64,000 bases of DNA from Thermoplasmatota archaeon (GTDB taxonomy: Archaea > Thermoplasmatota > Thermoplasmata > UBA10834). The position numbers were made by a program, and so were the translations under genes. A model generated the notes under the pieces. The model was not told the DNA's origin and did not search any database. It worked only from the letters and a program-made list of their open reading frames with translations. Location: the NCBI GenBank assembly GCA_040751795.1, contig JBFMHR010000003.1, positions 160,001 through 224,000 on the forward strand. The letters run 5' to 3'. Within the stretch, counting starts at the first letter, position 1, and each line of letters begins with the position of its first letter. Positions 14,596-16,262 of this stretch are shown here, piece after piece.

Positions 14596-15861
14596 TCACT
14601 CCGAGAGCATCCGGTCGACCATCTTCATGGCGCAGAGCTCGCCGCACATCGAGCAGACGTTGGGGCTCTTGGACCTCCTCCGGTCCCGGACGGCCTTGGC
14701 CCTCTCGGGGTCCATGGACAGCCTGAACATGCCGTCCCAGTCGAACGCCTTGCGCGCCCGCGACATCTCCAGGTCCCACTGGGCGCCCTTCCCCCTCGCC
14801 AGGTCCGCCGCGTGGGCGGCGATCCTGCTCGCCACCACGCCCTCCCTCACGTCGTCGACGGTCGGGAGAGACAGGTGCTCGGAGGGCGTCACGTAGCACA
14901 GGAAGTCGGCACCGTGGTACGCGGCCAGCGCGCCGCCGATGGCGCCCGCGATGTGGTCGTAGCCCGCCGCGACGTCGCACACGAGCGGGCCCAGGACGTA
15001 GAACGGGGCCCCCTTGCACACGGTCTTCTCGATGCGGACGTTCGCCTCTATCTGGTTGAGCGGGACGTGCCCCGGCCCCTCCACCATCGCCTGGACGCCG
15101 GCCTTCCTCGCCCTCTCGACCAGCCTGCCGAGCACGATCAGCTCGTGCAGCTGCGGCACGTCGGTCGCGTCCGCGGTGCAGCCAGGGCGGAGCCCGTCCC
15201 CCAGGCTGAGGGCGAAGCCGTGCTCCTTCGCCAGGTCCAGGAGGTGGTCGTAGTCCTCGTACAGGGGGTTCTCCTCGCCGTGCTCCCTCATCCACGCGAT
15301 CAGTATGGCCCCGCCCCTCGAGACGACGCCGGTGACCCTGCCGTGCCTCTTCAGGGACCTCGCGGTGCTGGAAGTGACCCCGCAGTGGACGGTCATGAAG
15401 TCCACGCCGTCCCTGGCCTGCCCCTCGATGGCCTTGAACATGTCATCCGGGCGGAGCGCCCTCACGCCGCCCTTGCCGGCCCTCTTGCAGAGCGCCTCGT
15501 AGATGGGCACGGTCCCTACAGGGAGGCGGCACTCGGATACGACCCTCCTCCTGATGGCCCGCAGGTCGCCCCCGGTGCTCAGGTCCATGACCGCGTCCGC
15601 GCCGAACCTGGCGGCGACCATGACCTTCTCGATCTCCTCCTCGACGTCGACGTGGTCCTTCGACGTCCCGATGTTCGCGTTGACCTTGACCCTCATCCCC
15701 TCGCCAATGGCCACGTGGGCGAGGTCCTTGTGCCGGGGGTTCGAAGGTATTACGACCCTCCCCGCCTCGAGGAGCTTCGTCAGGCGGTCTGGCTCGACCC
15801 CCTCGGCTCTCGAAGCCCCCTCTATTTCCACTGGAAAGCCCTTCTTCCTCTTCCCTGCCAT
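14596..15861 (-). CDS. thiC: Phosphomethylpyrimidine synthase
   Basis: [69 protein letters not shown]. Confidence 0.96.
15816..15837 (-). other. ORB-like origin recognition box embedded in the thiC coding sequence
   Basis: Minus strand TTTCCAGTGGAAATAGAGGGGG closely matches the archaeal ORB consensus TTCCAGTGGAAA-x-G-string. Confidence 0.65.
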
Positions 15862-15891
15862 CGGATACCTTCGTCACCAAATGCCTCGACA

Positions 15892-15905
15892 GTATAAAGG
15901 CTTTG
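15892..15905 (-). promoter_or_regulatory. BRE/TATA promoter of thiC
   Basis: Minus strand CAAAGCC-TTTATAC about 30-40 nt upstream of the ATG. Confidence 0.65.
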
Positions 15906-16089
15906 ATTGGGCGACGCGCGCCAGGCCGCAGCCAGGACGTCCCTGGACTGGTGGACGCGGGCCGCCGGGCCGGCCGCGGCCGCGGGGGCCAGGCCGATCG
16001 CCTGCGGGGCCCCAGGGCCGCCCTCCCGACGCCGTTCGACATGCGCCGACATTTCTCATGGAATATCGCCCCGGAAATCGGCGAAAAAC

Positions 16090-16110
16090 TCCACCGGAAA
16101 CGGAGGGGTG
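16090..16110 (+). other. Second ORB-like element (inverted relative to the first), followed by an AT-rich patch at about 16127-16170
   Basis: TCCACCGGAAACGGAGGGGTG: TCCA-nn-GAAAC core plus G-string; a partial CCGGAAAT copy lies at about 16071. Confidence 0.62.
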
Positions 16111-16262
16111 TTTTCGGGGGCAGCCAGATAGTATTCTCAAAGATTTTATATACGCATGCTCCATTTAAGAGGGAACACAGCCAGAGAAAGCGCCGTAAAG
16201 ACGGATGGGATGCGTCAGGGAAATCCGGGTCCCCGAGCCCGTCCCATGGAGACAAGGATCGC

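Follow-up and report, generated by a model that had tools for sequence, protein, structure and literature searches.

A cluster of predicted Orc1/Cdc6 sites, made up of two full origin recognition boxes (ORBs) and one mini-ORB, lies at the thiC-gyrB junction of a Thermoplasmatota archaeon (NCBI GenBank assembly GCA_040751795.1), and our analysis suggests, with a rough probability of 0.45, that this cluster is a satellite of the replication origin that is tied to the control of gyrBA and is not the main origin itself. The window, by which we mean the whole stretch of 64,000 nucleotides that was analysed, covers positions 160,001 to 224,000 of contig JBFMHR010000003.1 (G000:C23:160001-224000; positions given with a contig prefix are those of the contig, all others those of the window). 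The contig, C23, is 354 kb long and belongs to an assembly of 2,050,642 bp in 53 contigs that is 92.8% complete and has a GC content of ~65%. Its tRNAs with introns, its two orc1/cdc6 genes and the names given to the sources of close protein relatives ('Thermoplasmata archaeon') assign the genome to an uncultured lineage of the Thermoplasmata. The boxes at the junction share their motif with those of the canonical origin (oriC1) of the same genome, are rare in the genome, are subject to selection at the DNA level, stand at a rigid spacing from the gyrB promoter and are restricted to one family.

The first of the two full boxes, ORB1 (TTTCCAGTGGAAATAGAGGGGG; 15816-15837, minus strand), consists of the dyad TCCAGTGGAAAT and a G-string that points into thiC. 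The second, ORB2 (TCCACCGGAAACGGAGGGGTG; 16090-16110, plus strand), has its G-string pointing at the gyrB promoter. Both contain the dyad core TCCA-N2-GGAAA, and their G-strings, GGGGG and GGGG, lie 3-4 nt past GGAAAY. The original prediction, made from the window, had proposed a candidate replication origin here on the strength of an ORB-like pair, a partial CCGGAAAT, an AT-rich tract and an intergenic gap of ~400 bp. We found each of these features where it had been placed, with a gap of 401 bp separating the starts of thiC (15861) and gyrB (16263). The pair had been put between the genes, which holds for ORB2, but ORB1 lies inside codons 9-15 of thiC (14596-15861, minus strand), a radical-SAM ThiC gene (Pfam PF01964, E 1.9e-184, residues 7-416), and within the part of the protein that the ThiC profile matches.

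To place these boxes in the context of the whole genome we scanned both strands of the assembly with the strict pattern TCCA..GGAAA[CT].{1,3}[AG]GGGG. This combination of dyad and G-string occurs three times in 2,050,642 bp, twice at thiC-gyrB and once near cdc6-1 (C23:134376), and it is absent from each of 30 first-order Markov simulated genomes; the concern that equally good matches might be scattered at random is thereby answered. Within the window, a scan that allowed up to two mismatches returned ORB1 and ORB2 only, whereas shuffled sequences gave a mean of 0.38 matches and 2 of 100 shuffles reached two. The dyad alone is not enriched in the genome (12 occurrences, where the simulated genomes have a mean of 7.7 and a maximum of 12), so the rarity is specific to the dyad combined with the G-string. 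With a position weight matrix (PWM) built from only the three strict matches, ORB1 and ORB2 score 28 bits, as against at most 21 bits for the oriC1 boxes of the same genome. The next-best single match (C1:57409, 19.7 bits) has no G-string and lies upstream of a gene for a TrmB/MarR-like regulator and not of a replication gene. The two strongest ORBs of the genome fall, together with the mini-ORB, within 295 bp. Judged by their motif, which is that of the origin beside cdc6-1, both sites are genuine ORB-type boxes and predicted Orc1/Cdc6 sites, as the original prediction had held. A chance match or a coding artefact is ruled out by the genome-wide counts, the simulations and the pattern at synonymous sites described below.

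The boxes are conserved throughout one family and, among the loci compared, nowhere else. Our comparison rests on 24 loci of the family that hold both gene starts, with five loci of other families for contrast. The thiC-gyrB junction is present in all 24 family relatives sampled, and the wider gene block is syntenic in each of the eight loci fetched, including that of a sister family, f2. ORB1 scores at least 22.3 bits in 24/24 family loci. For ORB2 the score is 17.6 bits or more in 20 of the 24, 13.7 bits in one and less than 12 bits in three, all three belonging to a single genus (g2) in which the G-string has been lost and the gyrB promoter retained. The distance between the two boxes is likewise conserved (262-278 bp). 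Conservation of the motifs in relatives, which had been named as a check on the original prediction, is therefore borne out. The five loci from other families contain no match of 12 bits or more, and one of them, that of f2, keeps thiC and gyrB adjacent. The boxes thus appear to be an innovation of one uncultured Thermoplasmata family, or else to have been lost in f2. At the scale of whole genomes, five genomes from three genera (three of them closed) have four matches each at up to one mismatch, all in two clusters, one a pair ~1.44 kb apart that brackets hflX and the other the pair ~270 bp apart at thiC-gyrB. Apart from the oriC1 region, thiC-gyrB holds the only strong ORBs in these five mapped genomes. 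The clusters are separated by 41-50 kb, and this spacing holds in every genome that has both on one contig. Across 46 family genomes an exact match is found in 45, never more than four times in a genome and 109 times in all, and a control with the reversed pattern returned none. A genome-wide ORB scan, also proposed as a check, accordingly finds a cluster at thiC-gyrB, but finds another at cdc6-1/hflX.

Because ORB1 lies within a gene, its conservation can be read against that of the protein. Codons 9-15 of thiC have the form xxT CCA xxG GAA ATx RAG GGG in 24/24 loci. The residues encoded by the first codon of this stretch and by the third vary (F/S/V/P and V/Q/L/P, respectively), yet the third bases of both codons are fixed in all 24 loci, and several of the preserved codons, GGG among them, are rare in this genome, TTT, CCA and GAA making up 2.3%, 6.3% and 6.7% of their codon families. 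The fixed third positions and the rare codons, kept despite changes of residue, therefore indicate selection on the DNA itself at ORB1. The homologous stretch of thiC in f2, by comparison, reads ATC CCT GAG GAG ATC TCC CAT and forms no box. Taken together, these comparisons show that purifying selection on the boxes is strong.

Alignment of the 24 gaps, combined with distance measurements, gives the order and spacing of the elements between the two genes. Nearest to thiC is ATCAAAGCCTTTATAC (15892-15907, minus strand), a sequence resembling a transcription factor B recognition element (BRE) with TATA box that is invariant in the 24 loci and stands ~30 nt before the thiC ATG; on the basis of its sequence and position it is the putative thiC core promoter. 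ORB1 lies 68-70 bp from it. There follows a spacer (15908-16035, 128 bp) whose sequence cannot be aligned and whose length is conserved. Its GC content is 84.4% here, against 65% for the genome, and 0.46-0.86 in relatives, while the next element lies 142.2 ± 3.6 bp (range 132-151) from the thiC TATA box across the 24 loci, and the length of the spacer is held to within ~4 bp in four genera; we found neither an open reading frame (ORF) nor an RNA that would explain the spacer. That next element, a palindrome-like sequence with the consensus TCGnCA-nn-TGnCGA in conserved columns (16036-16049), opens a rigid block. It is followed by the mini-ORB (16050-16064), a conserved dyad without G-string that reads CATTTCTCATGGAAT in this genome, where it is degenerate, and ATTTCCnnTGGAAT in the family consensus, and that gives a weak PWM match (12-14.5 bits) in several relatives. 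Next come a conserved GAAATCGGCG block (16071-16083, plus strand), which holds the partial CCGGAAAT at 16071-16078, then ORB2, and then the gyrB promoter with its AT patch (16123-16170, plus strand), which reads GCCAG-N10-CAAAG-AT-TTTATATA, has its BRE and TATA box at 16138-16152 and is near-invariant in the 24 loci. From the palindrome to the gyrB TATA box this block, inside which the mini-ORB, GAAATCGGCG, ORB2, GCCAG and CAAAG-nn-TTTATATA all fall, measures 108-109 bp in 24/24 loci. ORB2 is thus in a fixed register with the gyrB TATA box, ORB2 and the mini-ORB lying ~48 bp upstream of it, and this rigid register favours a role in gyrBA transcription.

The AT patch itself (16127-16170) has a GC content of 29.5%. 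Over 40 bp the value is 27.5%, which ranks 30-59 among 1243 AT patches and equals that of the AT block of oriC1; AT richness consequently fails as a means of telling the two apart. A homologous promoter block GCCAG...CAAAAGCATTATTAA also occurs in f2, which has no ORBs there, and TATA-like boxes lie upstream of gyrB in four other families. The presumed 5′ leader of gyrB (16153-16262, plus strand), whose limits follow from an inferred transcription start, contains the motif GGATGGGATGCG at 16203-16214; it is ~105-118 nt long across the 24 family loci, and GGATGGGATGCG is conserved in these and in f2. Because promoter and leader motif both occur in box-free f2, the AT patch is best regarded as the ancestral gyrB promoter, upstream of which the boxes were added. 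The caveat attached to the original prediction, that the AT patch might be only the gyrB promoter, was well founded: it coincides with a conserved BRE and TATA box that families without ORBs also have. At the position of this motif the leader reads GGATGGGATGC(G), which is invariant, and elsewhere it has a conserved block, AAAGCGCCG; f2 shares the two. RNAalifold gave no consensus structure for the 24 leaders. Separately, we note that the thiC (15892-15907) and gyrB (16138-16152) promoters share the composite CAAAG-N2-TTTATA, and that the pattern AAAG.{2,3}TTTA[TA]A has eight matches genome-wide, two of them at these promoters. There is no second copy of the palindrome-like element in the genome, GAAATCGGCG occurs there three times, and neither the palindrome, GCCAGATnGTATTC nor GAAATCGGCG has an informative second copy.

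The genome has what appears to be an ordinary origin elsewhere on the same contig. A search for the Cdc6_C domain identified two cdc6 genes on C23, which lie to the left of thiC-gyrB at distances of 43 kb and 111 kb, and no further Cdc6_C domain elsewhere in the assembly; the statement that no cdc6 gene lies nearby is thus correct for the window but not for the contig. Cdc6-1 (C23:131455-132687, minus strand) scores above the NCBIfam cut-off for the ORC1 equivalog (591 against 501 bits), and its gene faces that of an HflX-type GTPase across a 410-bp gap (C23:132690-133100). From left to right this gap contains a mini-ORB, an ORB on the plus strand, an AT-rich block of ~70 bp with invariant stretches, a variable spacer, an ORB on the minus strand and a second mini-ORB. 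Both G-strings aim inward at the AT block, and five genomes that represent three genera have kept this layout. The gap holds three of the 12 best non-seed PWM matches in the genome, and families f2 and f8 have the same type of box beside cdc6-1. A cdc6 gene together with a gene for a GTP-binding protein is the conserved context of oriC1 in haloarchaea (PMC4010727). By gene context and box layout, then, the cdc6-1/hflX gap is an ordinary oriC1, 43 kb to the left of thiC-gyrB and just outside the window. A further strong ORB stands by itself at the 3′ end of hflX (C23:134376-134394, plus strand), 1.4 kb from the AT block of oriC1 and conserved in 5/5 mapped genomes. It uses the same frame solution as ORB1, CCA ACG GAA ACG AAG GGG (CCA xxG GAA Axx AAG GGG), and its G-string faces ORB1 across 41-50 kb in all five. 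The other gene, cdc6-2 (C23:63217-64386), passes the subfamily model only, has ~115 bp of upstream DNA with no ORB in it, and would on this evidence encode an orphan initiator paralogue.

We propose the following account of the thiC-gyrB boxes. They would have arisen in the ancestor of the family through point changes over an existing divergent thiC/gyrB promoter region, one of them being written into thiC codons 9-15. The initiator, probably Cdc6-1, given that the same boxes occur at oriC1, would bind as monomers to ORB2 and the mini-ORB, while ORB1 would lie ~30-50 nt inside the thiC transcript. Binding would couple transcription of gyrBA, and possibly that of thiC, to the occupancy of the initiator, much as bacterial DnaA does at DnaA boxes in promoters, and as a by-product the region would offer extra high-affinity initiator sites 41-50 kb from oriC1. 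That Orc1/Cdc6 binds these boxes is something we infer, as we do the paralogue concerned and the direction of the effect on transcription. Several observations weigh against such a gyrBA control site. ORB1, at a distance of 250 bp from ORB2 and within a gene for thiamine synthesis, has no obvious use to a regulator of gyrB. The length of the spacer has been kept without its sequence, which suggests a higher-order complex spanning both boxes that a simple activator or repressor would leave unexplained. The density of boxes (3-4 in ~300 bp) and the AT content over 40 bp equal those of oriC1. The flat bottom of the gene-strand curve, described below, lies exactly between oriC1 and thiC-gyrB and fits two origins as well. 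Finally, no control of gyrase by Orc1/Cdc6 is described in the literature searched, nor did we find in the passages covered, those of PMC9348778 and PMC11894792 among them, any description of ORBs or of Orc1 at archaeal gyrase genes or their promoter.

Known systems offer partial parallels. In Pyrococcus, Cdc6/Orc1 binds a conserved cluster of ORBs inside the coding sequence of dp1 in vivo and in vitro (PMC1904270). The thiC-gyrB cluster resembles this cluster of the Thermococcales, located in the gene for the small subunit of PolD, in its dyad core TTCCAGTGGAA and in having repeats of the ORB and mini-ORB types which lie outside the unwinding unit, are partly coding and are conserved across an order or a family. 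It differs in that the dp1 cluster falls within a 5-kb origin region whereas the thiC-gyrB boxes are 41-50 kb from oriC1, and in having two outward-facing full ORBs with G-strings, so far predicted sites, in register with a gyrase promoter. A second parallel is with the Sulfolobales, in which paralogues of Orc1/Cdc6 are present at non-origin sites and influence transcription (PMC3607249, PMC9738581): chromatin immunoprecipitation with sequencing of Orc1/Cdc6 in S. islandicus revealed multiple non-origin sites, with altered transcript profiles in mutants (PMC3607249), and Orc1-2 is a regulator of the DNA-damage response, a specialised paralogue that is not an initiator (PMC9738581). In the passages available from these two reports, the non-origin sites are not described as pairs of full ORBs conserved across a family, unlike those at thiC-gyrB. 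A third parallel is with the DnaA boxes of bacterial promoters and the clusters of B. subtilis (PMC3245932), which similarly are few, of high affinity and off-origin, lie near the origin and in promoters, and are candidates for both transcriptional control and buffering. At thiC-gyrB, unlike at these bacterial sites, the initiator would be Orc1/Cdc6 and not DnaA, and would bind as monomers. We know of no demonstrated archaeal example of off-origin initiator boxes of the DnaA kind. In E. coli, the datA locus is another such initiator site outside the origin, of the buffering kind.

ORBs within genes and non-origin Orc1/Cdc6 sites are, as far as the cited passages go, already known (PMC1904270, PMC3607249). 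If Orc1/Cdc6 does bind, the locus would be a clear and evolutionarily dated case of an archaeal initiator gaining a non-origin target, readable at single-base resolution, with a box written into a gene by way of rare codons among its legible sites. It would also link the initiator to DNA gyrase, which sets the negative supercoiling required for origin melting, a link that is new to the literature searched. These ~400 bp bear on whether archaeal Orc1/Cdc6 is a transcription factor of the DnaA kind, on whether archaea possess buffering loci comparable to datA or to DnaA-box clusters (DBCs), and on the birth of origins. If the locus is merely a regulatory site, it would be a modest addition to the known non-origin binding of Orc1.

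The alternative that retains the most weight, although we consider it unlikely, is that thiC-gyrB is a second, non-canonical origin served by an initiator in trans, with Orc1/Cdc6 on ORB2 loading MCM onto the AT patch and ORB1 acting on the other flank, 43 kb from oriC1. The packing of the two strongest ORBs and the mini-ORB into so short a segment speaks for this, as do the conserved length of the gap and of the ORB1-ORB2 interval and the existence, in cdc6-2, of an orphan paralogue with no box of its own upstream. The locus shares with canonical oriC1 regions of Sulfolobus and haloarchaea (PMC12141716, PMC4010727) its type and density of boxes, a long intergenic region of conserved length and an AT patch ~20 bp past one G-string; the G-string of ORB2 lies ~17-20 bp from the AT patch, like that of the left ORB in the oriC1 of this genome, and the two AT-rich segments are equal in 40-bp GC content. 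The genes on either side, moreover, are directed away from the locus, with thiC and the gene for a DnaA-like protein reading leftward and seven genes rightward from gyrB. The cumulative gene-strand curve, computed with our own script from crude gene calls, has its minimum at ~129 kb (oriC1), is flat to ~175 kb and climbs only to the right of that point; at strand biases of ~60:40, however, the flat stretch of ~30 genes does not differ significantly from the slope beyond it.

The arrangement of the boxes argues against a second origin. Sulfolobus oriC1 has its ORB2 and ORB3 in inverted orientation on the two sides of an AT-rich DNA unwinding element, and each of them is required (PMC12141716). 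The oriC1 of the present genome follows this plan but thiC-gyrB does not: the pair faces outward, as a caveat in the original prediction had correctly said, with ORB2 pointing to the AT patch and ORB1 away from it into thiC, and it encloses 252 bp of DNA with 67.9% GC, including the 84%-GC spacer, instead of an unwinding element. In none of the 24 loci is there a box to the right of the AT patch, which, for all its likeness to the oriC1 block at 27.5% GC over 40 bp, coincides with the conserved BRE and TATA box of a gyrB promoter older than the boxes. The canonical oriC1 differs further in having an initiator gene adjacent, which is usual, although not universal, whereas here cdc6-1 and cdc6-2 are 43 kb and 111 kb off, and the true homologue of oriC1 lies elsewhere on the contig. 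In three of the 24 loci the G-string of ORB2 is gone while the promoter stays, and a second origin at a distance from oriC1 of just 2% of the chromosome would bring little gain. The inflection in GC skew that might have been expected at an origin is not seen: the 354-kb contig gives a noisy raw cumulative skew, residual skew at third codon positions (GC3) on C23 is flat, and neither has a turning point at thiC-gyrB. We discarded GC skew as a guide to origin placement, since after correction for coding strand the GC3 trends on C1 and C12 disagree with the gene-strand bias. An ORB-type origin at this site is thus unlikely, the canonical one lying beside cdc6-1 and hflX.

If the locus were nonetheless an origin, it would be one made de novo, point mutations having written two Orc1/Cdc6 boxes over a promoter and into coding sequence with no capture of a plasmid or an initiator gene. 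Such an origin, with outward-facing boxes and an initiator in trans at 41-50 kb from oriC1, would have been kept throughout the history of the family; this we regard as rather unlikely.

It is also conceivable, but in our estimation improbable, that the boxes, copied shortly after each initiation, serve as an origin-proximal sink or control locus that, in the manner of the DnaA-box clusters of B. subtilis or of datA in E. coli, draws Orc1/Cdc6 away from oriC1 and has no direct role in the transcription of gyrB or thiC. We know of no such locus in archaea. The boxes at thiC-gyrB are nearer to the consensus than those at oriC1 (28 against at most 21 bits), and the lone ORB of hflX indicates that the family keeps boxes outside the unwinding unit. 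A precedent exists in B. subtilis, where deleting together the six DnaA-box clusters that lie outside oriC leads to early initiation (PMC3245932). The distance of 41-50 kb to oriC1, constant in all genomes with both clusters on one contig, points in the same direction but may only mirror the fact that the segment as a whole is syntenic. A sink of two or three monomer sites, furthermore, would be a small one, and a fixed register with a TATA box is nothing that a sink requires, yet the block keeps its rigid length of 108-109 bp in 24/24 loci; this rigidity is accommodated by the reading we prefer, that of a site tied to gyrBA control.

More improbable still is that the boxes resemble ORBs in sequence only and belong to a different factor, winged-helix or other, or have a structural role, for instance at the boundary of a domain or as an origin-proximal anchor. 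Binding by Orc1/Cdc6 is here a prediction, the block contains further conserved elements (the palindrome, GAAATCGGCG and GCCAG), and the ORB at the hflX 3′ end and ORB1, facing each other over 41-50 kb in five mapped genomes, could mark a domain. Against this, the origin beside cdc6-1 has, in three families of the class, a textbook inverted pair built from an identical dyad with G-string, and the core of ORB1, ATTTCCACTGGA, is identical to that of the oligonucleotides, ORB and mini-ORB, with which the binding of Cdc6/Orc1 was studied in Pyrococcus (PMC1904270).

The suggestion of a bacterial-like dnaA-gyrBA context with hybrid or DnaA-based initiation finds no support, since the DnaA-like protein encoded beside thiC (12183-14444, minus strand; 753 residues) has no domain IV, DnaA boxes occur at chance level and are missing from the gap, and the neighbouring genes are of the KaiC-like and zinc-ribbon kinds. 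Matches to the DnaA box TTATNCACA with up to one mismatch number eight in the window against 7.3 expected, with none in 15862-16262. The protein itself has a coiled-coil-like N-terminal half, an intact domain III and a C-terminal DUF835 domain: Pfam assigns Bac_DnaA to residues 356-514, a Hda lid, and DUF835 to residues 618-747, and detects no domain IV. TIGR00362 covers profile positions 52-346 of 437 at 281.7 bits, below its cut-off of 343.9 bits. Residues 353-612 match the structure of Bacillus subtilis DnaA (8btg, E 3.5e-62) in an alignment that stops before domain IV and in which, by our own reading, the GKTH and VDD ATPase motifs are aligned. The protein is matched in 109 of 151 Thermoplasmata genomes sampled, in many of them at full length, and is linked to gyrB only in this order. 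No paper on a DnaA-like protein in archaea of the Thermoplasmatota turned up in the literature searched.

The remaining genes in this part of the window are of more ordinary interest. To the left of the DnaA-like gene lie a long ORF that by gene call is probably a real gene (3534-8915, plus strand), genes for an OGG-type glycosylase (8878-9753, minus strand) and an adenosine kinase (9770-10273, minus strand), and a Pfam-supported gene for a double-zinc-ribbon protein (10427-12190, plus strand). To the right of the gap, all on the plus strand, are gyrB (16263-18170) and gyrA (18181-20778), which together span 16263-20778 and match Pfam DNA_gyraseB, Toprim, HATPase_c, DNA_topoisoIV and GyrA_C, followed by Pfam-supported genes for a KaiC-like ATPase (20854-21606) and a zinc-ribbon protein (21736-22722) and by a gene for a zinc-ribbon/CARDB protein (22821-27548). 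Three minus-strand ORFs (5349-9062, 10370-12028 and 20350-22752) were rejected as genes: they have no Pfam match and overlap plus-strand genes, of which they are probably shadow ORFs in a high-GC genome, and tblastn matches to them in relatives reflect synteny and not real proteins. Two tRNA genes of 95-101 nt, at 14440-14540 (plus strand) and 59044-59138 (minus strand), were found by Rfam and missed by ARAGORN, and both presumably carry introns. The first of these either adjoins or overlaps the GTG annotated as the start of the DnaA-like ORF, which in truth probably starts further downstream.

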